Of a stretch of 51,802 nucleotides of DNA, positions 15,953-50,109 are shown piece after piece. Under the pieces are notes generated by a model. The model was given only the letters and a program-made list of their open reading frames with translations, searched no databases and was not told the origin of the DNA. A program made the translations under genes and the position numbers. The stretch is taken from NCBI GenBank assembly GCA_036564195.1, contig DATCLA010000234.1:1-51802 (forward strand), in the 5' to 3' direction. Numbering within the stretch: position 1 is the first letter of the stretch; each line of letters starts with the position of its first letter. This DNA comes from Bacillota bacterium (GTDB lineage Bacteria; Bacillota; UBA4882; UBA8346).

Positions 15953-17509
15953 ATGAAAAGACCGGTGTTGGGTTTATTTTTGGCCATTGTGGTCTTGGTT
16001 GCGGTTTTTAATCTTTTTACAACTCAGGCTGCTCCCAACGGGTTTGTTTATCGTGAAGGGAAAAACTTTATGCTGAACGGAAAGATCTTCCGGTTTGGCG
16101 GCGCCAATAATTATTACCTTCATTATAAATCAACCTCAATGATCGATGATGTCTTAAATGATGCGGTAGCGATGAACCTGAAGGTCATTCGCTGCTGGGC
16201 TTTTATGAACGGAAACGGCCAGGAGAACATCGTGATGCAGCCTTCGTTGGGCGTCTATGATGATGCCGGTTTTGCTCGGCTTGATTACACTTTACAAAAA
16301 GCGGAATCTTTAGGGCTGAAGTTGATTTTGGTTTTGGTTAATAACTGGGATGATTTTGGCGGAATGAACCAGTATGTAAATTGGACCGGCGCAGGCAATC
16401 ATGATGCTTTTTATACCAATGCCCAATGCAAACAGGCTTATAAAAATTATGTTAAGTATGTAATAAACCGGACCAATTCCCTTACGGAAGTTCAATATAA
16501 AGACTGTCCCGCCATTTTTGCTTGGGAACTCGGAAATGAACCGCGCTGTCAATCGGATTCTACCGGCCGGACCTTGGTGGAATGGGCCGATGAAATGAGT
16601 ACCTATATTAAGAGTATCGACCCGAACCATATGGTGTCTGTGGGTGATGAAGGGTTTTTTGCCCGGAAAGAGGAGACAGACTGGTTTTATAACGGCGGAG
16701 AAGGAGTTGATTGGGATAGTCTGATTGCCCTTAAAAACATTGACTTCGGTACGGTCCATCTTTATCCCGACCATTGGGGCAAGACGGCGGAATGGGGCAT
16801 TCAATGGATTAAAGACCATGCCCCAAAAGAGAAACCGGTCATCTTAGAAGAATATGGAATCAGGGGTGATAAGGACAAAGTCTATCAAACCTGGTGTGAG
16901 ACTGCACTTAATTGCGGCTATAACGGCACTATGTTTTGGATTCTCACCGGTATCCAGGACGATGGCCAGCTTTATGCTGATTATGACGGTTTTAGAGTGG
17001 TTTACCCCAGTACCACGGCAACAATCCTTGCTGAGCATGCCAAAGCGATGGCTGGCAACCCCAGCTTTACCACTACTCCCACTACGACATCTACAATTAT
17101 TCCAACGGCGCCGGCTACGGTTAGCCCAACCACAACGCCTCCGGTAACATCGACCAATACGAATACTCCAACAACAACGCCGAGCCTAAGCGGTAGTTGT
17201 GCTGTATCTTACAGCCAAAACGATTGGGGCAGCGGTGCTACAGTGAACATTTCTATCGAGAATAACGGCAGCAACATGATTAATGGTTGGAACTTGACTT
17301 TTAGTTTTCCCGGCAATCAGCAGATTACTAACATGTGGTGCGCTAAATATACCCAAAGCGGTGCAGCGGTCACTGTTACTAATGAGGCTTGGAACGGGAC
17401 CATTCCCGCAGGGGGTAGTGTTAACTTTGGCTTTAATATTAGCTATAGCGGGTCAAATTCCAAACCTTCCAGCTTTACATTGAATGGAGCTCCCTGCACT
17501 GTTGATTAA
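15953..17509 (+). CDS. Secreted GH5 endo-beta-1,4-mannanase with C-terminal CBM2
   Basis: Signal peptide. The N-terminus is typical of a GH5 mannanase (GFVYREGKNFMLNGKIFRFGGANNYY). The acid/base motif is FAWELGNEPRC and the nucleophile motif is VILEEYG. I recall this pattern from fungal/bacterial GH5_7-type mannanases, but the subfamily is tentative. A T/P-rich linker leads to CBM2 (17198-17506). Confidence 0.85.
   Translation: MKRPVLGLFLAIVVLVAVFNLFTTQAAPNGFVYREGKNFMLNGKIFRFGGANNYYLHYKSTSMIDDVLNDAVAMNLKVIRCWAFMNGNGQENIVMQPSLGVYDDAGFARLDYTLQKAESLGLKLILVLVNNWDDFGGMNQYVNWTGAGNHDAFYTNAQCKQAYKNYVKYVINRTNSLTEVQYKDCPAIFAWELGNEPRCQSDSTGRTLVEWADEMSTYIKSIDPNHMVSVGDEGFFARKEETDWFYNGGEGVDWDSLIALKNIDFGTVHLYPDHWGKTAEWGIQWIKDHAPKEKPVILEEYGIRGDKDKVYQTWCETALNCGYNGTMFWILTGIQDDGQLYADYDGFRVVYPSTTATILAEHAKAMAGNPSFTTTPTTTSTIIPTAPATVSPTTTPPVTSTNTNTPTTTPSLSGSCAVSYSQNDWGSGATVNISIENNGSNMINGWNLTFSFPGNQQITNMWCAKYTQSGAAVTVTNEAWNGTIPAGGSVNFGFNISYSGSNSKPSSFTLNGAPCTVD
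17198..17506 (+). repeat. CBM2 cassette copy 1 (dispersed ~310-nt coding repeat)
   Basis: [64 protein letters not shown]. Cys at module positions 1, 48 and 100. Confidence 0.9.
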
Positions 17510-17579
17510 AAGCATGTCTGCACTGACATCGATGACATAGGCTAAATCAAATGATTTATTCACAATCGGGGGTGTTCTA

Positions 17580-19892
17580 ATGCGTAAATTATACCAAGCG
17601 CTAATTGTTTTGGCAATACTGGCAATAGCCATCTTTACAGCTTCGGGGCTGTTTGCGGCGGCTGATTTTAATTATGCCGACGCTTTTGCCAAATCAATTC
17701 TTTATTACGAGGCCAGTTGGTGCGGTCCGGATGCGGGCACAAACCGTCTGAAATGGCGCGGGCCGTGCCATACTGAAGACGGTGCCGATGTGGGACTGGA
17801 CTTGACCGGCGGCTTTCATGACGCCGGCGACCATGTCAAATTCGGACTACCGCAAGTATATGCCGCTTCCACTTTGGGCTGGGCTTACTATGAATTTAAA
17901 GACACTTTCATTGCCAAAGGCCAAGACGGTTATATGCTCAGGATTTTAAAGCATTTTAACGACTATTTTCTCAAATGTTTTCCGAATGATACTACTTTTT
18001 ATTATCAATGCGGTGACGGGACCACCGACCACTCCTATTGGGGCCCTCCCGAACTTCAGACTACCGAGATAACTACCAGGCCTACTTTATATGCAGCGAC
18101 ACCCAGCACTCCGGCTGCGGATGTTTGTGGTAGCGCGGCTGCTTCATTAGCTTTAATGTACCTCAATTATCAGGATATGGACCCAGCTTACGCTAAACAG
18201 TGCCTGGACGCAGCGAAACGGCTTTTCGACTTTGGTAATAAATACCGGGGTAAGAGTGAAAGCGGTGGGTTTTATGGTTCCACTTCCTATCTGGATGACT
18301 TATGCTGGGGCGCAATCTGGCTCTATCTGGCAACTGACGATGAAGCTTACTTGACTGCCGCCGACGCCTTAATGTTGGAGAAGGGGATTGACGGGGTTAA
18401 CAGTTATAGCAACCATTGGACTCATTGCTGGGATGATGTTTTCGGCGGTGTCTTTGTAAAATTGGCCCAGATTACCAAGGACCCCAAATATGTGGCAATA
18501 GCCGAAGAAAACTTGGATTATTGGATTAATGGCGCTCCCACAACTCCGGGCGGGGTAAAATATATCAATTCCTGGGGCGCGCTGCGTTATACAGCCGCCG
18601 AATGTATGCTGGCAGTAGTCTACTACAAGACCACCAATGATCAGCGCTACCTAAATTTCGCCAAGGAGCAGATCGACTATATACTGGGTAATAACCCCCG
18701 TAACAGCTCTTATGTGGTGGGGTTCGGTAATAATTATCCGAAATTCCCGCACCACCGGGCGGCCAGCGGCCGAATGGAAGCGGCCCCGGCTTATGAGTCG
18801 AAGAAAGACCCGCAAAAGCACCTTCTCTACGGTGCCTTGGTTGGAGGGCCGGATTCAAACGACGGTTATAGTGATGCGGTGGACGAGTATGTCTATACTG
18901 AGGTAGCCATTGATTACAATGCCGGCTTTGTCGGAGCCATGGCCGGGATTACCAAATATTTCGGCGCCAACCAGACTCCGGAAGAAACTCCCGGGATTGA
19001 GGATATCAGTAAAGAGTATTTTGTCGAAGCGAAAATCATGGGTGAAAATGAGCAGGCGACAACGGTAGACGCCTATATCCATTGTGATACCATGCTGCCG
19101 CCGCGTTATGTTAAAGGGCTTACCTTCCGTTATTTTGTTGATTTAAGTGAATACTATGAGGCCGGAATGACAGCCGCCGATATTACGACTGCCGTTAATT
19201 ATGCACCCAACAGCGGAGTGCTTTCCTCCTTAAAGCCCTGGGATGAAGCAAACCATATTTATTATGTGGAAGGTAGCTGGCCTAAGACTGCCAATTACGG
19301 CACCATCGAATTCCAATTCCGGCTGGCTAATTATAATTCTAAACTGTGGGATGGCAGTAACGACTTCTCCCGGCAGGGTTTAACCGGCAGTCTGGCAGTA
19401 ACCGACCGAATTGCCCTTTATGTTGATGGTAAAAAAGTCTATGGTAAAGAGCCTTCCAGTTCCGACAGTACTCCCAAGCCGACGGCTACGGTAATACCCA
19501 CCGGATCGGTTCAGCCGAGTGCACCTGTTACTCCGACCGTTACTCCGACAGCCACGCCGACTGCTTCCCCCGTCCCGGCTTGTGCGGTGATTTATACCAT
19601 GAACGATTGGGGCAACGGCGCGACCGTGAGCATTACCATTAAGAATAATGGGACAACGGCCATCAACGGCTGGGAACTGGCATGGAACTTTGGAGGAAAC
19701 CAAAAGATCGTTAATCTGTGGAACGGTAAGTATACCCAAAATGGCAGCGCGGTTACTGTAACCAATGAGGCTTATAACGGAACTATTCCTGCTAACGGTA
19801 CAGTGAGTTTTGGTTTCAACCTTAGTTACAGCGGTTCTAATGCCAAACCGGCCAGTTTTACTTTAAACGGAAACAGTTGCACGGTTCTTTGA
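17580..19892 (+). CDS. Secreted GH9 endoglucanase with CBM3c and C-terminal CBM2 (processive Cel9A/E4-type architecture)
   Basis: Signal peptide. GH9 motifs are present: [63 protein letters not shown]. The fused CBM3c reads EYFVEAKIMGENEQATTVDAYIHCDT..LTFRYFVDLSE. A PT linker leads to CBM2 (19581-19889). It is a paralogue of the gene at 40548. Confidence 0.92.
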   Translation: MRKLYQALIVLAILAIAIFTASGLFAAADFNYADAFAKSILYYEASWCGPDAGTNRLKWRGPCHTEDGADVGLDLTGGFHDAGDHVKFGLPQVYAASTLGWAYYEFKDTFIAKGQDGYMLRILKHFNDYFLKCFPNDTTFYYQCGDGTTDHSYWGPPELQTTEITTRPTLYAATPSTPAADVCGSAAASLALMYLNYQDMDPAYAKQCLDAAKRLFDFGNKYRGKSESGGFYGSTSYLDDLCWGAIWLYLATDDEAYLTAADALMLEKGIDGVNSYSNHWTHCWDDVFGGVFVKLAQITKDPKYVAIAEENLDYWINGAPTTPGGVKYINSWGALRYTAAECMLAVVYYKTTNDQRYLNFAKEQIDYILGNNPRNSSYVVGFGNNYPKFPHHRAASGRMEAAPAYESKKDPQKHLLYGALVGGPDSNDGYSDAVDEYVYTEVAIDYNAGFVGAMAGITKYFGANQTPEETPGIEDISKEYFVEAKIMGENEQATTVDAYIHCDTMLPPRYVKGLTFRYFVDLSEYYEAGMTAADITTAVNYAPNSGVLSSLKPWDEANHIYYVEGSWPKTANYGTIEFQFRLANYNSKLWDGSNDFSRQGLTGSLAVTDRIALYVDGKKVYGKEPSSSDSTPKPTATVIPTGSVQPSAPVTPTVTPTATPTASPVPACAVIYTMNDWGNGATVSITIKNNGTTAINGWELAWNFGGNQKIVNLWNGKYTQNGSAVTVTNEAYNGTIPANGTVSFGFNLSYSGSNAKPASFTLNGNSCTVL
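19581..19889 (+). repeat. CBM2 cassette copy 2 (variant subtype: NLWNGKY, EAYNG)
   Basis: [66 protein letters not shown]. Only the two canonical Cys are present (positions 1 and 100). Confidence 0.9.
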
Positions 19893-20015
19893 TTGGCTGT
19901 ACCCACAGGCAGTAATGGTGTAACTTAACTGTTTTTTCACTATGACTTATTGAGGCGACAAATTGCTTTCGGAAAAATGAGTGTCCGGAAGCAGCAGCAA
20001 AAAGGAGGGTCAGTT

Positions 20016-22310
20016 TTGAGCAGAAAGTATTTGGTTTTACTGTTAATCACGGTTTTAGCCTTAAGTATGCATGTAGGCAATATTTTTGCCGCTTCCTACA
20101 ATTACGCTGAAGCCTTGCAAAAGTCGATCTACTTTTATGAGTGCCAGCAATCCGGACCATTACCGGAGTGGAACCGGGCGCGGCAATGGCGGGGCGACTC
20201 CTGTCTCAATGATGCTGTAACCGGCGGTTGGTTCGATGCCGGCGATCATGTGAAGTTTGGCTTGCCGATGGCTTATAGCGCTGCCATGCTTGGTTGGGCA
20301 ATGTACGAGTACGGTGAGGCGATTGCCGTGGCCGGACAAGCTACCGCCCTGGAAAACAATCTCCGGTTTGTCCTGGACTACTTTGTTAAGTGTGACCGTG
20401 GGACCAGTATGGTCTATCAAATCGGCGACGGCCACAAGGACCATTCCTGGTGGGGACCGGCAGAAGTGATTGAGAAGGAGATGACTCGGCCGGCTTATAC
20501 CACCAATGCTTCCTGTGTAACCGCAGAAACCGCGGCGGCACTGGCAATCGGCGCTAAATTATTCAATGACAGCACTTATCTAAAACATGCCAAAAGTCTG
20601 TTTGCTTTGGCCGATTCCGTCAAGAGCGATAGCGGTTATACGGCAGCCAATGGTTTTTATGACTCCTGGAGCGGTTTCTGGGATGAACTGATCTGGGCGG
20701 CGGTCTGGTTGTATATTGCTACAGGCGATGAAGCTTATTTAAAGAAAGCCGAATCCTATGTCGGCAACCTGAGTAAAGAGGGGCAGACCGATAAGATCGG
20801 TTACAAATGGGCCCATGCCTGGGATGACGTCCGTTACGGCGCTTTGCTGATGCTGGCAAAGCTTACCAATAAACCGGAATATCACGAGTTTATGCAGATG
20901 CACCTGGACTATTGGACCGTTGGTTATAACGGAGAACGAATTACTTATACACCCGGCGGTCTGGCCTGGTGTGATACCTGGGGGTCGTTGCGTTATGCCT
21001 CAACAACAGCCTTTCTGGCCTTTGTTTATGCCGACTTCATCACTGACGCTACCTTGAAACAGCGTTATCAAAGTTTCGCGGAGCGACAGATCAACTACTG
21101 CTTGGGTGACAATCCCCGTAAAAGCAGTTATGTAGTGGGTTTCGGTAATAATCCGCCCAAGCACCCGCACCACCGGACCTCCCACGGTTCCTGGTGCGAC
21201 ATGCAGAATACTCCGGCTAACCACCGGCACATTCTCTACGGGGCGCTGGTCGGCGGGCCCGACAGTTCGGACAGGTACACCGATGACATCAGCAATTATA
21301 CCACCAACGAGGTAGCTACCGATTATAACGCGGGATTCACTGGCGCTTTGGCTAAAATGTATAGCCTGTACGGGGGTAAGCCATTGTCGAACTTTCCCGA
21401 ACCGGAACCGGTCGAAGACGAGTTCTTTGTGGAAGCCGGTATTAACTCTTCGGGAAATACCTATACCGAGATTAAGGCATTGTTAAATAACCGTTCCGGT
21501 TGGCCGGCCCGTACCATTAAAGATCTGTCGTTTAATTATTATGTTGATTTATCGGAGGTTTTTGCTGCCGGCTATACCGCAGCAGATCTGACAGTATCAG
21601 CTGGTTACCAGGAGTTTCCGGTTACCATCTCCGGCCTGACCAAACACAGCGGCAATATTTACTATGTCAAAGTTGCCTTTAAAGACGGCACCAATATCTG
21701 GCCGGGCGGGCAGTCCGAATATGCCGGGGAGGTACAATTCCGGATCGCGGCGCCGACCGGGACCAGTTTCTGGGATGCGACCAATGATTATTCGTACCAA
21801 GGCTTAACCAATGCGGTAGTAAAAACCAAATATATTACTGTCTATGACGGGAACAAACTGATTTATGGGATCGAACCGGACGGCGTCGGACCGAGCCCGA
21901 CTCTAAGTCCGACTCCAAGTAAAAGCCCAAGTCCGAGTCCAAGTACCAGCCCGAGCCTGAGTCCAAGCCCGACTCAAACTCCACCGGTAACAGGTTGTTC
22001 GGTAGCTTATACCATGAATGATTGGGGCAGCGGTGCGACTGTTACTATCACAATCAAAAACAACGGGACAGTTGCGATTAACAATTGGGAACTGAAGTTC
22101 AGCTTCCCGGGAAATCAAAAGATTACTAACCTGTGGTGTGCGAAGTATTCGCAGAGCGGTGCGACAGTAACTGTGACCAATGAGGCGTGGAACAGTACCA
22201 TTGCCCCGGGAGCTACGGTAAGTTTTGGCTTTAATATCAGCTATAGCGGGACTAATACCAAACCGGCCGCATTCACCTTGAATGGCGCAGCCTGTACCGT
22301 TATCAATTAA
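20016..22310 (+). CDS. Secreted GH9 endoglucanase with CBM3c and C-terminal CBM2
   Basis: GH9 motifs: [68 protein letters not shown]3c reads [40 protein letters not shown]. An (SP)n linker leads to CBM2 (21996-22307). The start is set at the TTG at 20016 (AAGGAGGG 6 nt upstream), which gives a clean signal peptide. The track's 19950 and the ATG at 19977 are alternatives. It is a paralogue of the gene at 44815. Confidence 0.92.
21996..22307 (+). repeat. CBM2 cassette copy 3
   Basis: [52 protein letters not shown]. Three Cys. Confidence 0.9.
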
Positions 22311-22330
22311 CAACTAAATGCGCAGGAACG

Positions 22331-22415: not shown

Positions 22416-23759
22416 ATGGTTGGACGTAAACAAATACTCTGTTGCGGATTGCTGATTGTAATGTTAACGGTAGGCGTCTCATTGGGCTGGCGGAGTTTGG
22501 AAATAAACCGGAGACCACCCAAGCCCCATCCCTTTGGTTACCGGGCTTTAAAAATAAATGGTAAATATGTTGAAGCGACAGTCTTTCAACAGGAGCAGAG
22601 GCGGTTTTATGACCGTTGGAAACGTAATGGACCGATGTTGCGCCTTTCCGACGAAGCCCGTAATGATTTGCTTTTAGAAACAGTGATTAACCGGGCGGTC
22701 ATGGAAGACTATCTCCGGCAACAGCCGGGGGCGGAGATCAACCTCCAAGTGGTGCGGCGCTATATTGACCGCTATGTCAAAACCCATTACCCTACTGAAG
22801 AAGCTTGGCAGGCTTATCTGAAGAGTGTTTATTGCACGGATGAGGCTCAGTTGGAACAGGTCGTCGCAGTCTACCTGTTACAGTTGAAATATTTTCCGGC
22901 AGTAGCTAAGAAGTACGGCATTACTGTTTCACCGTCCGAGTTAGCCCAACGTGACCGCAGCCAACGGGAGGAAAACCGCAAGGCGGTGATCCGTCATATT
23001 TTGATTGCTCCCCATGACCGTACGCCCCGCCAGGCAGAGCAACTGGCCCGTAAGGTTTATCAGAAACTAAGTACAGGATTGGATTTTCAAGCAGCGGTTA
23101 AAAGCTACTCCGACGACCACCAGACTAAAGACCAAGGGGGACGCTTGGGTCCGTTAACCCGAAACCAGGTGCCGCCGGAGTTGGTCTGGAAAATCTTTAA
23201 CGCCCAACCCGGGCAGTTGTTCCCCCCGGTTAATACCAAATACGGCTGGGAGATTGTAAAAGTGGACCGTTTTATCGAGTCGGGACATCCCCTGTCCGAG
23301 CTGCGGGCGATGATCACAGTTGCCAAGTTTATGGCTTCAAAGGAGTACGAAACCTGGTTACAAGAGCTTAAAGCCGTTGCCAGGATCGAAATCACTGAAC
23401 CCTGTTTTCAGGCTTACCGACTCTCAAAAGCCCAAAAACACCATCAGGCCGGTCAAATTTATGAACGCCTTTACCATCAGTATCAAGCGGAGTTTTACTT
23501 ACAACGAGCGCTGGAAAGTTACCTGGCGGCTCAAAACTGGAAGAAATTAATTGAACTGGGCCAATTAGGTATAAAAAAACATGATAATCAAGTACCGTAT
23601 TATTTGTATGCCGCCGAAGGATTTTACCGCAATCGTCGTCGGCAGGAGGCTTTAAAACTACTAAAAAAAGCAGACAAACTGGCAGCTGGTAATCTAGTTC
23701 TGAAAAATATGACCATCCAAGCCTATCAGAAGCTGGGCTTAGAAAGCGGCTTAAAATAA
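22416..23759 (+). CDS. Membrane-anchored parvulin-type peptidyl-prolyl cis-trans isomerase (PrsA/SurA-like) with helical-repeat C-terminus
   Basis: N-terminal TM anchor (ILCCGLLIVMLTVGVSLGW). Parvulin domain: VIRHILIAP..FQAAVKSYSDDHQTKDQGGRLGPLTRNQVPPELVWKIFNAQPGQLFPPVNTKYGWEIVKVD. The C-terminal ~110 aa look like TPR-type helical repeats. Confidence 0.8.
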   Translation: MVGRKQILCCGLLIVMLTVGVSLGWRSLEINRRPPKPHPFGYRALKINGKYVEATVFQQEQRRFYDRWKRNGPMLRLSDEARNDLLLETVINRAVMEDYLRQQPGAEINLQVVRRYIDRYVKTHYPTEEAWQAYLKSVYCTDEAQLEQVVAVYLLQLKYFPAVAKKYGITVSPSELAQRDRSQREENRKAVIRHILIAPHDRTPRQAEQLARKVYQKLSTGLDFQAAVKSYSDDHQTKDQGGRLGPLTRNQVPPELVWKIFNAQPGQLFPPVNTKYGWEIVKVDRFIESGHPLSELRAMITVAKFMASKEYETWLQELKAVARIEITEPCFQAYRLSKAQKHHQAGQIYERLYHQYQAEFYLQRALESYLAAQNWKKLIELGQLGIKKHDNQVPYYLYAAEGFYRNRRRQEALKLLKKADKLAAGNLVLKNMTIQAYQKLGLESGLK

Positions 23760-38936: not shown

Positions 38937-39006
38937 AACCGGTACAGAAATTGAATCAGCTGGTAAAAAAGAAAGGAAATTATCTTAATAGTAAAGGAGA
39001 AGGTTG

Positions 39007-40422
39007 ATGAATTTGTCGAGAAAGAACCGACTGCTCACTGGTTTACTGGCTTTATTGATCTTAAGTACGCTCCTGATTTCTGGTGCGGTGCCAGTCGCGG
39101 GAGCCGGCGGGCCGGTGGACACTTATGGCCAGTTGCAGGTGATCGGGAATCAATTGTGCGACCGTTCCGGTAACCCGGTGGCCTTGCGCGGGATGTCGTT
39201 GTTCTGGTCCAATTGGGACACTGGGTTTTACAACAGTAATGTGGTCCAATGGTTGCGCGACGACTGGAAGTGTACCGTGGTCCGGGCAGCGCTGGGAATC
39301 GAACCGCTCGGCGCCTATCTCAGCAATCCGGAAGCACAAAAACAAAAGATAACCGCGGTGGTTGACGCAGCGATCAATCTCGGGATGTATGTAATTATCG
39401 ATTGGCATGATCATAATGCCCATAATCACACCCAACAGGCTAAAGAGTTTTTTGCCGCTATGGCGCAACGCTACGGGAGTTATCCCAATGTGCTCTATGA
39501 GATCTATAATGAACCCGAGAGCGTGGGTTGGACAACGGTTAAAGCCTATGCCGAAGAGGTAATCGCGGCGATCCGTCAACACGATCCCGACAATATCATC
39601 ATCGTCGGTACGCCTAACTGGTCCCAATATGTGGATGCCGCTGCCGATAACCCGATCCGGCAGTCGAATATTATGTATACCCTACATTTTTACGCAGCCA
39701 CCCATAAACAATGGCTGCGTGATAAAGCCACCTATGCTTTGAATAAAGGGATCGCCTTATTCGTCTCGGAGTGGGGTACCAGCGAAGCCACGGGTGATGG
39801 GACGTTGGATTATAGCGAGTCCGATATTTGGATTGATTTTATGCTTAAAAACAATTTAAGTTGGTGTAACTGGTCGTTGTTTACTAAGGAAGAAACCTCC
39901 GCCGCTTTACTGCCGGGGGCCGGAACCAACGGCGGATGGGACAGTTCGCAGCTTTCAGCATCCGGAAAATATGTCCGGGAGAAATTGATCAGTCTGAACA
40001 GTGTTGTTCCAACCATTTCACCGAGTCCGAGTCCCAGTCTAAGTCCCAGCCCCAGTCCGAGCCCTACTCAGATACCGAGTCCCAGTCCGACCGGGACTTC
40101 CGGAAGCGGTTGTACAGTCGCCTATACCATGAATGACTGGGGGAGCGGCGCGACAGTTACTATTACACTGAAAAACAATGGGACGGTGGCAATTAACAAT
40201 TGGAAGCTCGAATTTAGTTTCCCTGGTAATCAACAGATCACCAACCTGTGGTGCGCTAAATACACGCAAAGCGGCGCAGCGGTAACTGCCAGCGGCGAAT
40301 CCTGGAACAGTGTAATTCAACCGGGCGGTACCGTCAGTTTTGGGTTTAACATCAGTTATAGTGGTGCCAATGTCAAGCCGACCAGCTTCACCCTTAACGG
40401 CGTTGCCTGTCAGGTCCTTTAA
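39007..40422 (+). CDS. Secreted GH5 endoglucanase (cellulase, GH5_2-like) with C-terminal CBM2
   Basis: Signal peptide. The sequence YGQLQVIGNQLCDRSGNPVALRGMSLFWS is followed by the acid/base motif VLYEIYNEPE and the nucleophile motif FVSEWGTS. An (SP)n linker leads to CBM2 (40111-40419). The ATG at 39007 is preferred to the adjacent TTG at 39004. Confidence 0.9.
   Translation: MNLSRKNRLLTGLLALLILSTLLISGAVPVAGAGGPVDTYGQLQVIGNQLCDRSGNPVALRGMSLFWSNWDTGFYNSNVVQWLRDDWKCTVVRAALGIEPLGAYLSNPEAQKQKITAVVDAAINLGMYVIIDWHDHNAHNHTQQAKEFFAAMAQRYGSYPNVLYEIYNEPESVGWTTVKAYAEEVIAAIRQHDPDNIIIVGTPNWSQYVDAAADNPIRQSNIMYTLHFYAATHKQWLRDKATYALNKGIALFVSEWGTSEATGDGTLDYSESDIWIDFMLKNNLSWCNWSLFTKEETSAALLPGAGTNGGWDSSQLSASGKYVREKLISLNSVVPTISPSPSPSLSPSPSPSPTQIPSPSPTGTSGSGCTVAYTMNDWGSGATVTITLKNNGTVAINNWKLEFSFPGNQQITNLWCAKYTQSGAAVTASGESWNSVIQPGGTVSFGFNISYSGANVKPTSFTLNGVACQVL
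40111..40419 (+). repeat. CBM2 cassette copy 9
   Basis: [52 protein letters not shown]. Three Cys. Confidence 0.9.
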
Positions 40423-42868: not shown

Positions 42869-44701
42869 ATGAAAAGGTTATTATTAGCGTTATTAATCTT
42901 TGCCTCAATCGGTAGTATGCTGGCAGCAATTGATTTTCAAGCCGCAGCCGAAGAGAATTACCCCGGTTTTAGAGTAAAAGGCCGGTTTCTCTATGACAAA
43001 TACGGTGTAAAAGTAATCCTGGTTGGTGTCAATAAGATGGTAATCTGGACGGATATTGACGGTTTGCCCAGTTATGAAGAGATTGCCAAAACCGGTGCCA
43101 ATTGTGTCCGGATTGTCTGGACCTCCGATGGTACTGCTAAACAGCTGGATACCGCCATCTATAACTGCCGGGCTAACTCAATGATCCCAATGGTGGAACA
43201 CCATGGCGCTACCGGGGCCTGGAATGATCTGCAAAAATGTGTCGACTATTGGACCCGTCCCGATGTGGTCGCAGTGATTAAAAAGCACCAAGAGTACTTG
43301 TTAATCAATATTGCCAATGAGTGTGGCGACGCCAACGTTTCCACCAGTGCTTTCCGGACTGAGTATACTGCGGCAGTCCAACAAATGCGGCAAGCCGGGA
43401 TCCATGTGCCGTTAATTATTGACGGCACCGACTGGGGCAAGAATATCAATATCCTCCAGTCGGAAGGTCCGGCGTTGTTGGAGGCCGATCCCGATCATAA
43501 TCTGCTCTTTTCAGTACATATGTGGTGGCCACAGATGTGGGGATATTCGGAACAGACCGTAATTGACGAAATTGCCGAATCAGTCAATTTGAACTTACCG
43601 TTAATCGTGGGTGAATTCGGCGCACTTTGGGAAGAGTCTGCCCAGGGGCAGATTCCCTACAAGACCATTATGGAGCAATGCCATAAAAACCAAATCGGCT
43701 GGTTGGCCTGGTCTTGGGGGCCGGGTAACAATCCCCAAACCTTTTTGGATATGACTGAAGACTCGACCTTTGCGACTTTGCATGGCTGGGGCCTGGAAGT
43801 GGCGGTAACCGATCAATACAGTATTAAAAATACTGCCGTCCGTCCCGCCTGGTTACAGGAGCCGCTGCCGCCATTGCCAACACCGACACCGCTGCCTGTC
43901 GGAAACCTGGCTGTCGGTAAACCGGTTTGGGTATCTTCAGTTGAAAGTAACTCCTATCCTGGCAGTAATGCGGTTGACGGTGATCTGGCGACCCGGTGGT
44001 CCTCGGGAAGTTCGGATCCGCAATATCTTACGGTTGACTTAGGCCGGGTTTATGCCATTAACCGCGTAATCCTCTGTTGGGAGAATGCTTACGGTAGACA
44101 GTATAAGCTCCAAGTATCCGACGACGGGAACAACTGGACCGATCTTTATACCGAGTATAACGGTGACGGCGAAACGGATGACCTGGCGGTAACCGGTAGT
44201 GGCCGCTATGTCCGGATCTATGGCCTGCAGCGCTATAATACGGAATGGGGTTATTCATTATGGGAAATTGGGGTTTACAGTCCGGAAAATATTGAACCGT
44301 CGCCTACCGGAACCATCGATCCGACCCCCACTTTGACCCCAACTGTGGAACCTCCCAGTCCCAGCCCGACGGTGACTTCCGGTACCGGTTGCACAGTCAC
44401 TTATACCATGAATGACTGGGGCAGCGGCGCCACTGTCACTATTACTATTAGCAACAAAGGGACTACAACGGTGAACAATTGGGAACTTAAGTTCAACTTC
44501 CCGGGAGACCAAAAGATCACCAATCTGTGGTGTGCCCAGTATACCCAAAGCGGTACGGCGGTAACCGTAACTAACGAAGCCTGGAATAGTACAATCCCGC
44601 CGGGAGGTACAGTCAGCTTTGGATTCAATCTCAGTTACAGTGGGACCAATGCCAAACCGGCCGTGTTTACCTTAAACGGTACGGCTTGTTCGGTAGAGTA
44701 G
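42869..44701 (+). CDS. Secreted GH5 beta-mannanase (alkaline-Bacillus Man5A-like) with F5/8 type C (CBM32-like) domain and C-terminal CBM2
   Basis: It starts 26 nt after the previous stop (RBS AAGGAGG). GH5 motifs: LLINIANECGD (acid/base), LIVGEFG (nucleophile), GWLAWSWGPGN. The overall order of motifs matches what I recall of Bacillus Man5A-type mannanases. The discoidin domain (about 43903-44280) reads NLAVGKPVWVSSVESNSYPGSNAVDGDLATRWSS..YLTVDLG..RYVRIYGLQRYNTEWGYSLWEIGVY. CBM2 is at 44390-44698. Confidence 0.85.
   Translation: MKRLLLALLIFASIGSMLAAIDFQAAAEENYPGFRVKGRFLYDKYGVKVILVGVNKMVIWTDIDGLPSYEEIAKTGANCVRIVWTSDGTAKQLDTAIYNCRANSMIPMVEHHGATGAWNDLQKCVDYWTRPDVVAVIKKHQEYLLINIANECGDANVSTSAFRTEYTAAVQQMRQAGIHVPLIIDGTDWGKNINILQSEGPALLEADPDHNLLFSVHMWWPQMWGYSEQTVIDEIAESVNLNLPLIVGEFGALWEESAQGQIPYKTIMEQCHKNQIGWLAWSWGPGNNPQTFLDMTEDSTFATLHGWGLEVAVTDQYSIKNTAVRPAWLQEPLPPLPTPTPLPVGNLAVGKPVWVSSVESNSYPGSNAVDGDLATRWSSGSSDPQYLTVDLGRVYAINRVILCWENAYGRQYKLQVSDDGNNWTDLYTEYNGDGETDDLAVTGSGRYVRIYGLQRYNTEWGYSLWEIGVYSPENIEPSPTGTIDPTPTLTPTVEPPSPSPTVTSGTGCTVTYTMNDWGSGATVTITISNKGTTTVNNWELKFNFPGDQKITNLWCAQYTQSGTAVTVTNEAWNSTIPPGGTVSFGFNLSYSGTNAKPAVFTLNGTACSVE
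44390..44698 (+). repeat. CBM2 cassette copy 11; near-identical to copy 10
   Basis: [67 protein letters not shown]. By eye there are only about 8 nucleotide differences from copy 10 over the ~280 nt core. Confidence 0.95.
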
Positions 44702-44814
44702 TAATCAGCCAGAGAATTTAAGAGTGTCGGAAATAAAGATCCTGTTGGCGTAGGATATTTAAAAAATTGCGTTAGCCACTTGGCAAGCTATTTTCGGTGA
44801 AGGAGGAAAGATTA

Positions 44815-47142
44815 ATGAAACGGCTGATCAGACTATTGTTGCTGCTACTAGTTTTAGGCTATAGTTTTGGATCACAGCTCCGGATTGCGGCAGCAACCTA
44901 TAATTACGGCGAGGTATTGCAAAAAGCGATCTATTTTTATGAATGCCAGCAGTCCGGGCCCTTGCCTGAATGGAACCGGGTAGAATGGCGGGGCGATTCC
45001 GGAATGAACGACTATGTGCTGGGCGGCTGGTATGATGCGGGCGATCATGTAAAATTTGGCCTACCAATGTCTGCCTCAGCGGGAATGCTGGCTTGGGCTG
45101 CTTATGAATACCGGGATGCTTTTGAAACCGTGGGTCAATGGGAGACTCTGACTAATAATCTCCGTTTTGTCATGGATTATTTTGTAAAATGTCACCAAGG
45201 TAACACTTTTGTCTATCAGATTGGCGATGGCAGCGCCGATCATTCCTGGTGGGGACCGGTGGAAGTAATTGAAGAAAAGATGGACCGGCCTTATTATACC
45301 ACGACTGCTTCCTGTGTGACCGGCTGTACCGCCGCCACCTTGGCTATTGGTTACCTGGTTTTTAAGGACCCTACCTACTTAAAGCATGCCGAGGAACTGT
45401 TTATTATGGCCGACAGCACCAAAAGCGATGCCGGTTATACTGCGGCCAACGGTTACTATGCTTCGCATAGCGGTTTCTGGGACGAGCTGATCTGGGCGGC
45501 TACCTGGCTATATCTGGCCACCGGTGATGAGGCCTATCTCAGTAAAGCCGAAAGTTATGTGCCCAATCTATCGAAACAGGGCTATACTGCTGATGCGCCG
45601 ATTGAATATAAATGGACCCAAAGCTGGGACGACAAACGTTACGGAGCTTTACTGCTTTTGGCCAGAATTACCGGGAAACAGCTCTATATTGAGGCTACTG
45701 AAAGATACCTGGACTATTGGACAGTAGGATACAATGGCGAACGGATCACTTATACCCCCGGCGGACTAGCCTGGCTGGATACCTGGGGCTGCCTGCGTTA
45801 CGCCGCCAATACCGCCTTTATGGCTGCCATCTATAGCGATTGGGTAACCGATACCGTTAAAAAAACCCGTTATCAGAATTTTGTTAAGAGCCAAATTAAC
45901 TATATCTTAGGGAGCAATCCGCGGAACTCCAGTTATGTGGTGGGGTTCGGCAACAATCCGCCGCAACACCCGCACCACCGGACCGCTCACGGTTCTTGGT
46001 GCGCGCTGATGAATCAACCGGCTAACCACCGCCATATTATTTACGGTGCTTTGGTGGGTGGACCCGACTCAAATGATGCTTATAACGACGCCATTACCGA
46101 TTATATCTGCAATGAAGTTGCCTGTGACTATAATGCGGGGTTCATTGGCGCTTTGGCCAAGATGATCCAATGGTACGGCGGTTCATCACTGAAAAATTTC
46201 CCGCCGCCGGAAAAACGGGAACCGGAGATCTTTACCCAGATTTGCGCCAATACTTACGGTGCTTACTCGGAGATTCGCTTACAAATGAATAACCGTTCCG
46301 GCTGGCCGGCCCGGGTTAGCGACAAGTTGTCCTGCCGTTACTATGTAGATTTAACCGAAGTTTTTGCCAGCGGTTTAACCATTAACGATGTTCATGCCAA
46401 GATCTCAAGTACGATAGCGAAAATCTCCGGTTTTCAGCATTACCGGGGTAATATTTATTATGTAGTAATCGACTTCAGCGGGACCAAAATCTATCCCGGC
46501 GGGATGAACGAGTATTTTAAGGAGATCCAGTTTCAGATCGGCCTGACCTCGGGTCCCCCGTCAGGCTGGGATCCAACCAATGACTTCTCTTACCAGAGCT
46601 CGGGCCCGTCCACGTTTGTGATGGCGGAGAATATCCCAGTTTATGATCAGGGGGTGTTGGTCTTTGGTAAGGAGCCTGATGGTTCGGGAGTTACACCATC
46701 ACCGCATCCAACGGGGACAGTATCGCCGACCTCGATTCCTCCGACGGTACCGCCGACTCAAAGTCCCAGCCCGAGTCCGAGTCCGAGCCAGACTCCGGTT
46801 CCGACTCCGACCCTGACCGTAACCGGCGCTACAGTTAACTATTCAATGAACGACTGGGGTAGCGGCGCAACGGTCACCATTACCATTAGTAATATTGGGA
46901 CTGCTGCAATTAACAATTGGGAACTTAAGTTTAACTTCCCGGGGAATCAAAAGATCACCAACTTGTGGTGTGCCCAGTATTCCCAAAACGGCGCCGCAGT
47001 TACTGTGATTAATGAAGCCTGGAACGGTACAATTCCGCCCGGTGCCTCGGTTAGCTTTGGCTTTAATATCAGCTACAGCGGGACCAATGGCAGACCGACG
47101 CTATTTACCCTAAATGGGGTGCCGGTATCTTTAACAAATTAA
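44815..47142 (+). CDS. Secreted GH9 endoglucanase with CBM3c and C-terminal CBM2 (paralogue of 20016)
   Basis: The ATG at 44815 lies 8 nt after GAAGGAGG; the track's GTG at 44797 overlaps that RBS. GH9 motifs: [68 protein letters not shown]3c reads [42 protein letters not shown]/(SP)n linker leads to CBM2 (46828-47139). Confidence 0.92.
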   Translation: MKRLIRLLLLLLVLGYSFGSQLRIAAATYNYGEVLQKAIYFYECQQSGPLPEWNRVEWRGDSGMNDYVLGGWYDAGDHVKFGLPMSASAGMLAWAAYEYRDAFETVGQWETLTNNLRFVMDYFVKCHQGNTFVYQIGDGSADHSWWGPVEVIEEKMDRPYYTTTASCVTGCTAATLAIGYLVFKDPTYLKHAEELFIMADSTKSDAGYTAANGYYASHSGFWDELIWAATWLYLATGDEAYLSKAESYVPNLSKQGYTADAPIEYKWTQSWDDKRYGALLLLARITGKQLYIEATERYLDYWTVGYNGERITYTPGGLAWLDTWGCLRYAANTAFMAAIYSDWVTDTVKKTRYQNFVKSQINYILGSNPRNSSYVVGFGNNPPQHPHHRTAHGSWCALMNQPANHRHIIYGALVGGPDSNDAYNDAITDYICNEVACDYNAGFIGALAKMIQWYGGSSLKNFPPPEKREPEIFTQICANTYGAYSEIRLQMNNRSGWPARVSDKLSCRYYVDLTEVFASGLTINDVHAKISSTIAKISGFQHYRGNIYYVVIDFSGTKIYPGGMNEYFKEIQFQIGLTSGPPSGWDPTNDFSYQSSGPSTFVMAENIPVYDQGVLVFGKEPDGSGVTPSPHPTGTVSPTSIPPTVPPTQSPSPSPSPSQTPVPTPTLTVTGATVNYSMNDWGSGATVTITISNIGTAAINNWELKFNFPGNQKITNLWCAQYSQNGAAVTVINEAWNGTIPPGASVSFGFNISYSGTNGRPTLFTLNGVPVSLTN
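46828..47139 (+). repeat. CBM2 cassette copy 12 (both canonical Cys lost; only the WC Cys retained)
   Basis: [56 protein letters not shown]. Confidence 0.9.
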
Positions 47143-47337
47143 CCTCTTTTTGCGGGGTTAAACCCGCACTGACTTCATGACTGGCTGTTTGACAGAAACA
47201 TTTTTGGGATAGGTATCAGTTAAGCGCGGGGTGAAGGATATCAAGGCAATAACAGTCTGCTTTTGCCTCGCACTTTCTTCATATTAACTCACTGCCGACA
47301 GTTGGTATAAATCTGAAACAGAAGGAGATGATTTCAA

Positions 47338-50109
47338 ATGAAGCAAAATAATGAATTTTCAGCTAAGATCTGCCCTAAAACTGGTAAAGTGATTAAAATA
47401 AGCCGTTCTGACCAGGCCCGGCGGAGCTGGTGGTTTCCCATTGCCGGACTGATTGGGTTTATTTGGTTTGCAATCCGGGTAATTCCCAAACCAAGCCGGG
47501 CAACTTATCCGTGTCAAAGAGCGGCTTTTCCGTTAGCGGCTTCATTTATTCTTTGGTTAACCGGTTTATGCGGCGGAGCGCTGGCTTTCCGCCGACTGAA
47601 GCAGTACTTCTTAAAGTCATCTCGCCTAGTAGGGGCTCTCAGTATGCTGGCCTTGACTGCCATCACCTGCTTTACCCTTCATTTTTTGCCTGGTAAAGCC
47701 GACGCTGCACCGGTTCGTCTGGCAACCTCTACGGTAGCGATTGTCCAGTCCTCCCAAGCCAACGCCAGTAATATTCAATATGATGAGATTAGGTCGATGG
47801 TTCGAAAGGCAGTTGATTTAGCCGGGGGACTGTCCGGTATAGTCAAAAACGGTGATGTGGTAGTCATCAAGCCTAACCTGGTATCATACAACAGTAACGG
47901 CCGGATTCTAGCAGCAGAGGTCAACGGGAACACTACCGATTGGCGGGTTACCAAAGCAGTAGTGGAACTGGTCCGTGAGCTCAATCCCAGCGGTAAAATT
48001 TATATAATGGAAGGTTCATCAGTCCCGACCCAGGAAGCATTTAACATTCTAAAATATACCTCGGCTAATATCCCCGAAGCGGATCTGATTGTTCCGATCG
48101 AGACGGATAGCGGCGCTTGGCAGGATACTAACTCGACCGGACTAGTTAAGGTTAGTTTACCTGATGGCCTGCTCCATAAGGAATACTATCTGAACCGCAA
48201 GATTAAAGAGGCCGATGTGCTCATTAGCCTGTCATGCCTGAAGACCCATTGGAGTGCCGGTTTTACCGGAAGCTGTAAAAACATTGGGATTGGGGCAACC
48301 CCGGGTAACATTTACGGTATCTCTTCCGGTAATCCGCACCGTAATAATATGGTTACTCATGATAATACTGCCGGTGACCTTCATAAGTGGATCCGTGACT
48401 ACTATAAGTGCCGTCCGGCTGATTTTACCATCATAGATGGCCTGCAGGGATTGCAAAACGGGCCGATCAGTGCTAACAGTTCCGACCAGATGAATATGCG
48501 GTTGATCCTGGCCGGTAAAGATGCAGTAGCGGTAGATACCATCTGTGGGCTGGTCATGAACTGGGATCCGGAAAGCATTGATTATTTGAAATATTTAAAC
48601 AGTGACTCCCTTGGCAATTTAGACACAGCCTGCATTAATGTGGTAGGCAAAAAAGTTGATGAAGTGCGTAAAAGTTTTGCCGGTCGAACACCGGTGGCCG
48701 GAGGTTCCAAAATTACCGATACAGCTCCGCCAAGCTTGACGGTTAATTCGGTTTCACTCCAAGGTAGCATGTTGAATATCTCTTTGGCAACCAGTGCCGA
48801 CACTGTTAAAGTAGAGATCTATCTGGATGGTGTCTTGCAATTGCCGGTATCGGTCTCCAACTTTAGTAATATCACCATTAATACCAACGGGCTTGCCCCC
48901 GGGAGCCATACCGTGAGTGTTAACGCCTACGACCGTTTCTTGAACCGTGCCGAAAAGACGGTCACTGTTAACAGCCAGGGCAGTACTACTCCAGGCAATT
49001 CTCCCAGTCCTACTCCGCTAGTCCCCGGTAACTACAACGCTCCCCGGGCTGTTCAAGCTCCGGTCATTGACGGGCTGGGTAATGATAGTTGCTGGGCTGA
49101 GGCGTCCTGGAGCAGTATTAGTTTTGTCTGGCTGGGGAGCAGCCCGTCACCATCGGATTTCAGCGGCCGTTACAAGATAGTCTGGACCCCCGAGCGGCTC
49201 TACTATTTAGTTGAAATTACCGATGATGTTTTCTCAGCGCCCTATACCAATCCGTTGATTAATTATTATAACAATGACTGTGTGGAGTTGTTTATCGATG
49301 AAGATTGTTCCGGGGGCGAACATACTAACAACCATAACGCCTTTGCCTATCATATTCAACGTAATGGCGCTGTGACGGACAACTCAACCTCCGGAAACCC
49401 CAAGACCTTTAACGACCATGTTGAAGTACAAGTAACCCAAAATGGCAATGTCTATACCTGGGAAATTGCTGTAAAGGTCTTTCCGGATACTTATAATGAA
49501 AACAACAGCAACAATCAACCGGTTAATTTAACCGCCGGAAAAGTCCTCGGATTTGGAGTTGCCTACAATGACAACGACGGCGGCAGTACCCGGGAGAATT
49601 TTATCGGCTCAATGGAGATCTCCGGTACTGATAAAAACGTCGCTTATAAAAATGCCAGTGTCTTTGGGAAACTGCAATTAATCGATAACAGTACCGTGCC
49701 TTCTCCGTCAGCAACATCATCAGTAACAGCGTCGCCGCCGGAACCAACGGCGCTTACTCCCAGTCCAACTTCATCAGTTCCGCCAACCAATGGCTGTACG
49801 GTAACATATACAATCCAAAATGACTGGGGCAGCGGGGCCACGGTGAACGTTACGCTAAAAAATAACCAAACAACAGCGATTACTGGTTGGACTTTGGTCT
49901 GGAACTTTGGGGGTAACCAGAAAATTACCAACCTGTGGAACGGTACGTTTAACCAAAGCGGGACGGAGGTTACAGTAAAAAATGCCGCTTATAATGGGAC
50001 GATCGCTCCTAACGGCATGGTAACTTTCGGATTTAACCTGACGTACAGCGGGACCAATAGCAAACCGGCGAGTTTTAGGTTGAACGGTGCTGTTTGTCAG
50101 GTTCTATAA
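47338..50109 (+). CDS. Multi-domain protein: N-terminal TM segments, DUF362 domain, Ig-like domain, CBM9-like domain, CBM2
   Basis: 923 aa with three N-terminal hydrophobic segments. The last ends in a signal-peptidase-like site (GKADA-AP).
- DUF362-type core: [62 protein letters not shown].
- Ig-like module: [33 protein letters not shown].
- CBM9-like module: [61 protein letters not shown]. This tracks the Thermotoga Xyn10A CBM9 pattern as I recall it.
- A linker, then CBM2 (49795-50106). Confidence 0.8.
49795..50106 (+). repeat. CBM2 cassette copy 13 (variant subtype: NLWNGTF, AAYNG)
   Basis: [73 protein letters not shown]. Only the two canonical Cys are present. It has one extra residue before NDW. 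Confidence 0.9.

Follow-up and report, generated by a model that had tools for sequence, protein, structure and literature searches.

Anaerobic breakdown of cellulose is usually explained by one of three models, namely the cellulosomes of monoderm clostridia, free enzymes tagged with a carbohydrate-binding module (CBM) of family 3 or 37 in monoderm Firmicutes, and the contact systems of Fibrobacter and Bacteroidota. The cellulosome cluster of Ruminiclostridium cellulolyticum has the order cipC-cel48F-cel8C-cel9G-cel9E-orfX-cel9H-cel9J-man5K-cel9M. Free enzymes bearing CBM37 are known from Ruminococcus albus, and those tagged with CBM3 from Caldicellulosiruptor and Lachnoclostridium phytofermentans; these hosts are monoderm. 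In actinobacteria, Cel9A of Thermobifida fusca combines a glycoside hydrolase (GH) of family 9 with other modules in the order GH9-CBM3c-Fn3-CBM2, the same species has Cel48A and Cel5A, and Cellulomonas fimi has the Cex and Cen enzymes. Halocella cellulosilytica is a cultured cellulolytic member of Halanaerobiales. The window analyzed here is the whole 51,802-nt stretch (positions 1–51,802) of contig DATCLA010000234.1, assembly GCA_036564195.1. It contains a 34-kb array of genes on the forward strand (15953–50109) that is likely to be the core cellulolytic gene cluster, of the free-enzyme type, of an uncultured anaerobic Bacillota clade bearing an outer membrane. Judged by its sequence, the array resembles the enzyme set of a cellulosome that has been converted to free enzymes.

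The CBM2-tagged array

The window holds 28 open reading frames (ORFs) of at least 150 aa. The ORF listing and Pfam scans revealed that fifteen consecutive genes on the forward strand at 15953–50109 encode 14 exported plant cell wall proteins and a parvulin peptidyl-prolyl isomerase (PPIase). According to Pfam and the nearest solved structures, the 14 proteins comprise seven GH9, one GH48, one GH74, one GH3 and three GH5 enzymes and a DUF362-CBM9 protein. A C-terminal CBM2 was found in 13 of these carbohydrate-directed proteins (Pfam E-values from 4e-29 to 4e-32), and the remaining one ends in CBM3b. A separate search for DNA repeats returned a 300-nt family with 13 copies located exactly at the CBM2 sites; since this family was obtained independently, the 13-copy pattern is not a matter of chance. 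The first-pass annotation of this DNA had described 14 proteins on a single strand, 13 of them with CBM2, and had listed seven GH9 enzymes (five with CBM3c, one with PA14), GH48, GH74, GH3, the GH5 enzymes and the DUF362 protein. This count, the coordinates and the inventory were reproduced, but the fifteenth gene, encoding the PPIase inside the array (22416–23759), had been missed.

Two features of free CBM-tagged systems, a Sec-type leader and an own C-terminal CBM, were found in 13 of the 14 proteins and in all 14 (CBM2 or CBM3b), respectively. In the leader, a single hydrophobic segment at the N-terminus precedes an AXA-type site. In the DUF362 protein, three hydrophobic helices within the first 120 residues take the place of a simple leader, so that the earlier attribution of Sec-type leaders to all members stands for the other 13 and fails for this one. 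The Pro/Thr/Ser-rich linkers noticed earlier are indeed present ahead of all 13 CBM2 modules and are 32–71 residues long (47–71 in 12 of them, 32 in the GH74 protein).

Components of a cellulosome were also looked for. For dockerin, cohesin and SLH domains, the 15 array proteins yielded no Pfam match at E ≤ 1e-3, and five rescanned proteins, three of which belong to the array, yielded none at E ≤ 5. No dockerin-loop motif was found in the six frames of the 51.8-kb window, and no lipobox cysteine or LPXTG motif in the array proteins. In addition, no cohesin or scaffoldin was matched among the window proteins or the genes called in related loci, and neither dockerin nor cohesin turned up in the called genes of these loci, which cover about 100 kb. 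The lack of dockerin, cohesin and SLH domains in the window, already proposed from inspection of the sequence, was thus borne out by the profile search and the six-frame scan. Because none of these domains and no dockerin calcium loop is present, the system is, within the limits of the window, not cellulosomal, and the earlier description of a free-enzyme, non-cellulosomal system is supported, both tests for a cellulosome (type I dockerin and cohesin scaffoldin) having failed. GH6 and AA10 domains were not found by Pfam in the array or the related loci.

Orthologous arrays were found only in uncultured Bacillota, namely in metagenome-assembled genomes (MAGs) and metagenomes. Relatives of the GH48-CBM2 protein at 70–79% identity occur only in such sources, and the next matches are at about 50%. 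A GH48 scan of 185,579 species genomes (GTDB) returned one locus, 'MAG: Bacillota bacterium OH_SFB_226'. Four other MAG or metagenome loci contain orthologues of the array genes in the same order with 69–82% identity. In OH_SFB_226, GCA_023420075.1 and a contig from ENA, the order is GH9_a, GH9_b, GH48, GH9-PA14, GH30-like-CBM2, GH5-CBM2, GH74-CBM2 and GH5cel, and in three JGI metagenome contigs (L011–L013) it is GH5man_a, GH9_a, GH9_b, GH48, PPIase and GH9-PA14 (gene names as introduced below). A further JGI contig (L017) carries, after an orthologue of the DUF362 gene, genes for an esterase-CBM2, a GH10-CBM2 and a second esterase-CBM2 (12066–16436). The presence of these esterases and of a GH10 xylanase indicates that the CBM2 tag extends to hemicellulases in this clade. 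In the open-access literature, no description of this lineage or of a GH48/GH9 cellulase system in diderm Firmicutes was found.

In the sister lineage (loci L003, L005 and L010), the array is preceded by genes for an AraC-type response regulator, a histidine kinase and a solute-binding protein (643–3081 in L003/L005; 81–2529 in L010). In the window, prfC lies upstream and no regulator is nearby, which means that the array has moved or its flanks have been rearranged.

All of the array genes described below lie on the forward strand, and their modules were assigned by Pfam unless another source is named. The array begins with a gene (GH5man_a, 15953–17509) encoding a GH5 endo-mannanase with a single Sec-type leader, a Pro/Thr/Ser linker and CBM2 (17198–17497), as matched by the Cellulase and CBM_2 families. 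Its nearest structures are the GH5 mannanases 8GF3 and 3PZ9, and a 69% orthologue occupies the matching position in L011. It is followed by two enzymes with the architecture GH9-CBM3c-linker-CBM2. The first (GH9_a, 17580–19892; CBM2 at 19581–19880) is of the processive-endoglucanase type. The nearest entries in the PDB are Cel9M (1IA6), Cel9G (1G87) and T. fusca E4 (1JS4), and orthologues with 73–78% identity were found in L003, L010 and L011. The second (GH9_b, 19950–22310; CBM2 at 21996–22295) has orthologues at 72–74%; its translation probably begins at the ATG at 19977, and the gene call in L001 begins 27 nt later. After the PPIase gene comes the GH48 exoglucanase gene (23913–26363; GH48 E-value 2e-271), which ends in a linker and CBM2 (26052–26351).

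The next two genes encode GH9 enzymes, namely a Cel9M-like one without CBM3c (GH9_c, 26499–28247; linker and CBM2 at 27945–28232; nearest structure 1IA6) and GH9-PA14-linker-CBM2 (28285–30624; CBM2 at 30313–30612), whose orthologues in L003/L005 and L011 are 71–76% identical. The protein encoded at 30785–33550 matched only BNR/sortilin repeats and CBM_2 (33239–33538, after a linker) in Pfam. A PDB search assigned it to the GH74 xyloglucanases/endoglucanases (Xgh74A of C. thermocellum, 2CN2, E = 0), and a 75% orthologue is present in L003/L005. The gene at 33727–35991 encodes a GH3 β-glucosidase or glucan exohydrolase with N- and C-terminal GH3 domains, a Sec-type leader, a linker and CBM2 (35686–35979); the nearest structure is 5M6G, and enzymes of the barley ExoI type come next. 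A secreted, CBM2-tagged GH3 is unusual, as this class is normally cytoplasmic, periplasmic or untagged. Since the protein has both a Sec leader and a CBM2, cleavage of cellodextrins is predicted to take place at the fibre surface.

The sole array enzyme without CBM2, GH9-CBM3c-CBM3b (36022–38622), was matched by GH9 and by two stretches of CBM_3; its C-terminal module matches the CBM3b/3a structures 6D5B, 2WNX and 1NBC, and its catalytic module is nearest to 2YIK. It is followed by a GH5 endoglucanase with a linker and CBM2 (39004–40422; CBM2 at 40111–40410), similar to the GH5 endoglucanases 6GJF and 1A3H; its 82% orthologue lies at the end of L003/L005. Then come a GH9_a paralogue, GH9-CBM3c-linker-CBM2 (GH9_d, 40548–42842; CBM2 at 42537–42830), and a GH5 mannanase (GH5man_b, 42869–44701) with a discoidin domain of the CBM32-like type, a linker and CBM2 (44390–44689), as matched by Cellulase, F5_F8_type_C and CBM_2. 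The closest structures of the latter are the mannanases 1WKY and 1BQC and the discoidin domains 4ZXE and 2RV9. The last GH9 gene (GH9_e, 44797–47142; GH9-CBM3c-linker-CBM2 with CBM2 at 46831–47121) encodes a paralogue of GH9_b; it probably starts at the ATG of codon 7, which is backed by a ribosome-binding site. The DUF362 gene (47338–50109) closes the array.

From the families and the nearest structures, the GH48 enzyme, the GH9-CBM3c enzymes and the GH5 and GH9 endoglucanases are predicted to form a complementary exo-, endo- and processive set. The catalytic modules of three GH9 pairs are closely related (68% identity for GH9_a and GH9_d, 71% for GH9_b and GH9_e, 80% for GH9_c and GH9-PA14), and those of non-recent paralogues in the window are 35–46% identical. 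These values indicate that the array of the window was enlarged through internal duplication. GH9_c and GH9-PA14 are tandem paralogues with PA14 in only one of them, and the a/d and b/e pairs represent a second, dispersed duplication.

The 13 CBM2 copies of the window share 55–88% amino acid identity (mean 70%) and 59–91% nucleotide identity. Thus, the 'one shared CBM2 cassette' of the first-pass annotation is correct in the sense of one family and incorrect in the sense of identical copies. The most similar pairs are located in neighbouring genes (GH9_d and GH5man_b with 91% nucleotide identity, GH74 and GH3 with 86%). Comparison with the related arrays revealed that the copies group by genome, with a mean identity of 70% within the window versus 57–59% between the window and its relatives. 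Orthologous genes of different lineages are 71–78% identical over nearly their full length, and their CBM2 parts only 53–71%. This clustering by genome and not by gene implies that the tag is homogenised within each genome, i.e., evolves in concert. Dockerins, likewise, are more alike within one species than they are to those of other species.

In C. fimi Cex, three surface tryptophans are conserved, and all 13 copies have an aromatic residue at each of the aligned positions (W/W/W in 11, W/W/Y in two), in the contexts NDW, NLW and EAW/EAY. The three coplanar residues of Cex are Trp17, Trp54 and Trp72. The copies are classed as CBM2a, with crystalline cellulose as the predicted ligand. Two subtypes can be distinguished, namely 'NLWCA' in 11 copies (NMWCA in GH5man_a) and 'NLWNG' in two (GH9_a and the DUF362 protein). 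Both the N- and the C-terminal disulfide cysteines are present in nine of the 13 copies; the other four are without the N-terminal cysteine, and one of these is also without the C-terminal one. In 11 of the 13 copies, e.g., at 26052–26351, there is an extra internal cysteine (NLWCA). A cysteine pattern of this kind, with an extra internal residue and four N-terminal losses, fits a reducing habitat.

The CBM2 of the GH48 protein scores best against C. fimi Cex (E-value 6e-34), and those of GH9_a and the DUF362 protein against the CBM2 of EngD from Clostridium cellulovorans (3NDY), the DUF362 copy being 57% identical to it. A modelled copy was superimposed on 3NDY_E with a TM-score of 0.91 and a root-mean-square deviation of 1.5 Å. 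The match to EngD means that a Firmicute precedent for CBM2 exists. The identity to the CBM2 of Streptomyces GH48 is 46–49%. The first-pass annotation had regarded this module with PT linkers as a hallmark of actinobacterial and some gammaproteobacterial cellulases that is rare in Firmicutes. An actinobacterial origin was not upheld; the copies score as well against EngD as against Cex, and CBM2 is not diagnostic of such an origin. An attempt to name the donor lineage of the module was dropped, as the copies are roughly equidistant from these two proteins.

The DUF362 protein consists of three N-terminal helices, DUF362, an Ig-like domain, CBM9, a linker and CBM2 (49795–50097). Its AlphaFold model has a mean pLDDT of 81, and the value exceeds 90 over most of the DUF362 core. 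The only structural relatives found for the core are nickel-pincer racemases of the LarA family, with 14–16% identity, and DUF362 and LarA belong to a common Pfam clan, which agrees with the structural match (PMC11770544). An exhaustive search with the core returned 149 representative clusters at E ≤ 1e-30. Among the best 70 of these 149 clusters, a sorting domain of the type IX secretion system (T9SS) stands at the end of the protein in 32, CBM9 was found in seven, CBM2 in three and dockerin in three. DUF362-CBM9-dockerin proteins were described in cellulose-fed beaver and moose enrichments (PMC5742341). The CBM2 sits where cellulosomal homologues carry dockerin, and it behaves as an exchangeable address label; the DUF362 relatives that end in a T9SS domain, a dockerin or CBM2 support this view.

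The DUF362 protein is a member of a large extracytoplasmic family that shares a conserved N-terminus of three helices (motif ...YPCQ...), a LarA-like fold and the invariant residues K178, N180, K302, K314, H341 and D354. An 81% orthologue of the complete DUF362-CBM9-CBM2 protein is encoded inside the array of L017 (9042–11771). These data make it a candidate for a new accessory factor of anaerobic polysaccharide degradation.

The PPIase (22416–23759) is of the PrsA/PpiD/SurA type and is predicted to be membrane-anchored, with a TPR-like tail. It was identified by the Pfam family Rotamase; matches to SurA_N and TPR were weak, and all NCBIfam matches to PrsA/SurA were below the cut-off. At its N-terminus, a single hydrophobic segment is present and no AXA-type site is evident. 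A 42% orthologue is encoded inside the array of L011–L013, just after GH48 (L011, 12545–13873), and none in the array of L003/L005; of the two related lineages examined, one has thus kept the gene. The PPIase may be a dedicated foldase for the exported array enzymes.

Flanking genes and the host

The left part of the window contains genes of an outer membrane. An ORF running off the left edge (50–4093, forward strand) encodes the C-terminal 1347 residues of a giant exoprotein, presumably a cargo of the TpsA type. It has no Pfam match and resembles the ends of two proteins from related loci, one of 6623 aa in L006 (57% identity) and one of 5723 aa in L009 (31%). Both of these giant proteins, whose genes have no Pfam domain on record, are encoded directly upstream of a TpsB orthologue. 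In the window, the giant ORF ends 75 nt upstream of TpsB, and its N-terminus, where the domain for two-partner secretion (TPS) would be, lies outside the window. The TpsB gene (4168–5829, forward strand) encodes an Omp85 outer-membrane transporter of the ShlB type (Pfam ShlB, POTRA_2, POTRA and Omp85; signal peptide), in which the Omp85-type barrel, the POTRA domains and the leader MVKKTLVLIILILGLSRVNTMA are all present. Next on this strand are a small ORF of 102 aa (5856–6164), which is 63% identical to the one at the same position in L006 and 43% to that in L009 and has no family match in Pfam or NCBIfam, and the gene for the periplasmic chaperone Skp/OmpH (6145–6630; Pfam OmpH E-value 2e-15; signal peptide), with a 55% orthologue at the same position in L006.

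The order of the giant gene, TpsB and the small ORF (85–102 aa) is kept in L006 (1–12560), where Skp follows, and in L009 (1–11964). TpsB is 48–57% identical to its relatives, the best named one being from a Negativicutes MAG (48%) with the same order of giant cargo, TpsB and small ORF. Moreover, the order giant gene-TpsB-Skp-carB-ubiE-S8-prfC is repeated in ENA assembly ERZ4232226 and Logan assembly SRR34534991, obtained from different samples, and the ENA contig continues into the array. The module is thus linked to housekeeping genes in three assemblies including the window, two of which reach the array, and since the linkage recurs in assemblies of other samples, the connection of the outer-membrane genes with the array is not an assembly artefact. 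The proposal of an outer membrane in the host is backed both by the conservation of the giant cargo-TpsB-small ORF unit and by this repeated linkage.

The presence of TpsB, Skp, carB, ubiE, prfC, PerR and rubrerythrin in the flanks, as annotated earlier, was confirmed by Pfam and NCBIfam. A PerR-type Fur regulator (50371–50793; NCBIfam PerR) and rubrerythrin (50810–51406; Pfam Rubrerythrin) are encoded on the forward strand after the array, and these two genes suggest an anaerobic host. Between the outer-membrane genes and the array, a subtilase of family S8 with a fervidolysin-like pro-domain and no detectable signal peptide is encoded at 11638–13437. It was considered as a member of the cluster and rejected, because it has no signal peptide and the S8 protein encoded upstream of the array of a relative is not orthologous.

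To place the host, carB was compared with available sequences. The carB protein is 79–88% identical to entries named 'Firmicutes bacterium' or 'Bacillota bacterium' and 77% identical to those of Desulfallas, Pelotomaculum, Desulfoscipio and Syntrophomonas. All named organisms among the 120 best matches are Bacillota, and none of them is actinobacterial or proteobacterial. The contig of one carB relative showed no synteny with the window beyond carB, and for neither carB nor rubrerythrin is the sequence translated from the window on record. Together with the GH48 genome scan, these matches place the host in Bacillota and not among actinobacteria or Cellvibrio-like bacteria. Thus, the earlier assignment to an anaerobic diderm Firmicute-like lineage stands at this level. 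Among the Negativicutes, Limnochordia and Halanaerobiales types suggested there, the only named pointer is to Negativicutes, through the MAG with 48% TpsB identity.

Proposed mode of action and alternative explanations

A cleavable Sec leader serves to export the array proteins, with a three-helix N-terminus in its place in the DUF362 protein, and the membrane-anchored parvulin would help to fold the exported enzymes. An outer membrane in the host means that a second translocation step is needed, and this step would be provided by a system encoded outside the window. Since diderm Firmicutes are reported to possess BamA/TamB/Skp, OmpM and a type IV pilus with the PilQ secretin (Antunes et al. 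2016, PMC5007114), a secretin-based route, i.e., a type II or type IV-filament-like system, is the most economical guess and may be the likeliest one. After this step, the enzymes would act as free, cellulose-bound proteins, each held on crystalline cellulose by its own C-terminal CBM (CBM2a in 13 of them, CBM3b in one). Judging from what is known of the families, the GH48 and GH9-CBM3c enzymes would attack crystalline cellulose processively, the Cel9M-like GH9s, GH9-PA14 and the GH5 enzyme would cut amorphous regions, GH74 and the two mannanases would strip hemicellulose, and the CBM2-tagged GH3 would trim cellodextrins on the fibre.

Transcription of the array was also assessed. The sole strong terminator (51429–51472, 19 paired bases) is located after rubrerythrin. 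The absence of a strong terminator inside the array suggests that its genes may be co-transcribed or at least co-regulated. No Rfam families were found in the window, the upstream regions of four arrays do not share a motif, and the gaps of 711 bp and 381 bp contain neither inverted repeats nor credible small genes.

Several observations weigh against a free-enzyme cluster in an outer-membrane-bearing host. Apart from the terminator at 51429–51472, the promoter and terminator scans were at chance level. The best named carB matches (77%) are from the monoderm Desulfotomaculia and Syntrophomonadia and not from cultured Negativicutes. BamA, lipopolysaccharide (LPS) and OmpM genes are absent from the window, where the evidence for an outer membrane is confined to TpsB, Skp and the giant cargo, and so is secretion machinery for the array enzymes, which makes the outer-membrane step pure inference. 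Finally, the G+C content of the TpsB/Skp segment is 0.43 versus 0.46–0.53 for carB and most of the array (0.43–0.49 over the module at 50–6630; about 0.53 for carB). This segment could be an acquired island, yet it is conserved in relatives.

In one alternative explanation, the enzymes would not be released from the cell but would, after Sec export, be periplasmic or displayed on the outer membrane, degrading cellulose by contact as in Fibrobacter and Cytophaga, with CBM2 serving in part as a tag for retention or translocation. The very probable outer membrane of the host, the lack of an export system for the enzymes in the window and the giant adhesin-like TPS cargo encoded nearby would agree with this. 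All 13 CBM2 modules, moreover, are at the extreme C-terminus, which is the position of T9SS sorting domains and is occupied by such a domain in close DUF362 homologues. However, CBM2 is an ordinary cellulose-binding fold with a planar aromatic face in all copies, matching the CBM2a of freely secreted enzymes, and none of the array proteins has a lipobox, LPXTG motif or SLH domain to retain it. A periplasmic GH48 with processive GH9s makes no sense on crystalline fibres, and we know of no secretion system that recognises CBM2. We therefore regard contact degradation as unlikely.

A broader interpretation joins these elements, namely that the array belongs to an unrecognised cellulolytic lineage of diderm Bacillota, that enzymes of 50–100 kDa pass the outer membrane by a new Firmicute route, that CBM2 is both an anchor and a label for translocation or retention, and that the DUF362 protein is a new extracellular accessory enzyme for the anaerobic breakdown of cellulose. 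It is quite unlikely that all of this holds together; if it does, CBM2 would play a part like that of a dockerin or of a T9SS sorting domain.

Recent horizontal gain of the array from an aerobic CBM2-using lineage (Actinomycetota or Chloroflexota) could account for the differing neighbourhoods of the array in its relatives, for the best score of the GH48 CBM2 being against C. fimi Cex, and for the fact that the named top-matching GH48 proteins with CBM2 are from Streptomyces, Micromonosporaceae, Ardenticatena and Thermosporothrix. Such a transfer is very unlikely. Clostridial enzymes are the nearest matches of the catalytic modules, the identity of GH48 to named proteins is no more than about 50%, and GH6 and AA10, the hallmarks of aerobic systems, are missing from the array. 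The G+C content of the array matches that of its flanks, and gene order and orthology were maintained across lineages that differ by 20–30%. The CBM2 copies, at 46–49% identity to the module of Streptomyces GH48, reach up to 57% with EngD of C. cellulovorans.

It is less probable still that the window is a chimera of two organisms, or that the host is a monoderm with relic outer-membrane genes. The metagenomic origin of the window, the TpsB/Skp segment with G+C 6–8 points below its neighbours and the monoderm Bacillota among the best named carB matches would allow such an explanation. However, ERZ4232226 and SRR34534991 share the gene order of the window all the way from the giant gene through prfC, with the ENA contig entering the array, and the module consists of intact genes whose order is kept in relatives with 31–63% identity (48–57% for TpsB). 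To our knowledge, a TpsB barrel with a cargo of five to six thousand residues has no function in the absence of an outer membrane.

Least probable of all is a cellulosome encoded elsewhere in the genome with the CBM2 enzymes as non-cellulosomal auxiliaries, for although cellulosomal species keep some free CBM-bearing enzymes (e.g., EngD of C. cellulovorans, 3NDY) and DUF362-CBM9 occurs with dockerin in other organisms, the array has the whole core set (GH48 and seven GH9 enzymes) that bears dockerins in cellulosomal species, neither dockerin nor cohesin was found in the 51.8 kb of the window or in the called genes of related loci (about 100 kb), and the tag reaches GH10 and two esterases in L017.

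A free-enzyme cluster in an outer-membrane-bearing anaerobe is thus the preferred explanation, and it has several implications. Dockerin, CBM2 and T9SS tags swapped on the same catalytic and accessory modules represent a natural experiment, and the CBM2 copies offer a clear case of concerted evolution in a targeting module. The export of large folded enzymes by diderm Firmicutes becomes a concrete, testable question. The array also provides free cellulases of anaerobic origin as a compact set validated by orthologues, and the parvulin foldase and the DUF362-CBM9 protein are conserved non-CAZyme candidates for helper functions.

Comparison with known cellulolytic systems

A comparison with clostridial cellulosome clusters indicated a similar content, with GH48, four GH9 types, a GH5 endoglucanase, GH74 and two mannanases in the array. 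Both are long clusters on one strand with a single GH48, many GH9 architectures, GH5 and mannanase, and the catalytic modules of the array are closest to those of clostridial enzymes (Cel9M, Cel9G, C. thermocellum Xgh74A and 2YIK). However, the array has no scaffoldin, cohesin or dockerin, and every enzyme ends in a CBM. In addition, it includes GH3, the parvulin foldase and DUF362-CBM9, and its host has outer-membrane genes.

The independent secreted enzymes with CBM2a after a Pro/Thr linker resemble the free systems of actinobacteria, and GH9-CBM3c-CBM2 is the architecture of T. fusca Cel9A minus Fn3. Unlike these systems, the array belongs to an anaerobic member of Bacillota with outer-membrane genes, contains neither GH6 nor AA10, has CBM2 always at the C-terminus, is clustered and not dispersed, and combines the tag with catalytic modules of the clostridial type. 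C. cellulovorans EngD (GH5-CBM2) is also a Firmicute enzyme with a C-terminal CBM2; it is a single auxiliary beside a cellulosome, whereas in the array CBM2 tags the entire core set.

R. albus, Caldicellulosiruptor and L. phytofermentans are similar in being anaerobic Firmicutes in which one CBM family on most enzymes takes the place of dockerin, and the GH9-CBM3c-CBM3b enzyme (36022–38622) is of their CBM3-tagged free-enzyme type. They differ in the family of the tag, which is CBM2 here, and in being monoderm without a comparable 14-gene array. With the diderm Firmicutes (Negativicutes, Halanaerobiales and Limnochordia), the window shares housekeeping genes of the Bacillota type together with Omp85-family and Skp genes, but the BamA/TamB/Skp/OmpM/LPS locus that defines them (PMC5007114) is not in the window.

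Thus, the parts of the array all belong to known families, and the novelty lies in their combination, in which the CBM2 tag evolves in concert, the host carries outer-membrane genes and two non-CAZyme members are conserved. Beside the three usual models of anaerobic cellulose degradation, the array represents a fourth combination, in which a cellulosome-type repertoire and an 'aerobe-type' CBM2 tag are found in a host with outer-membrane genes.

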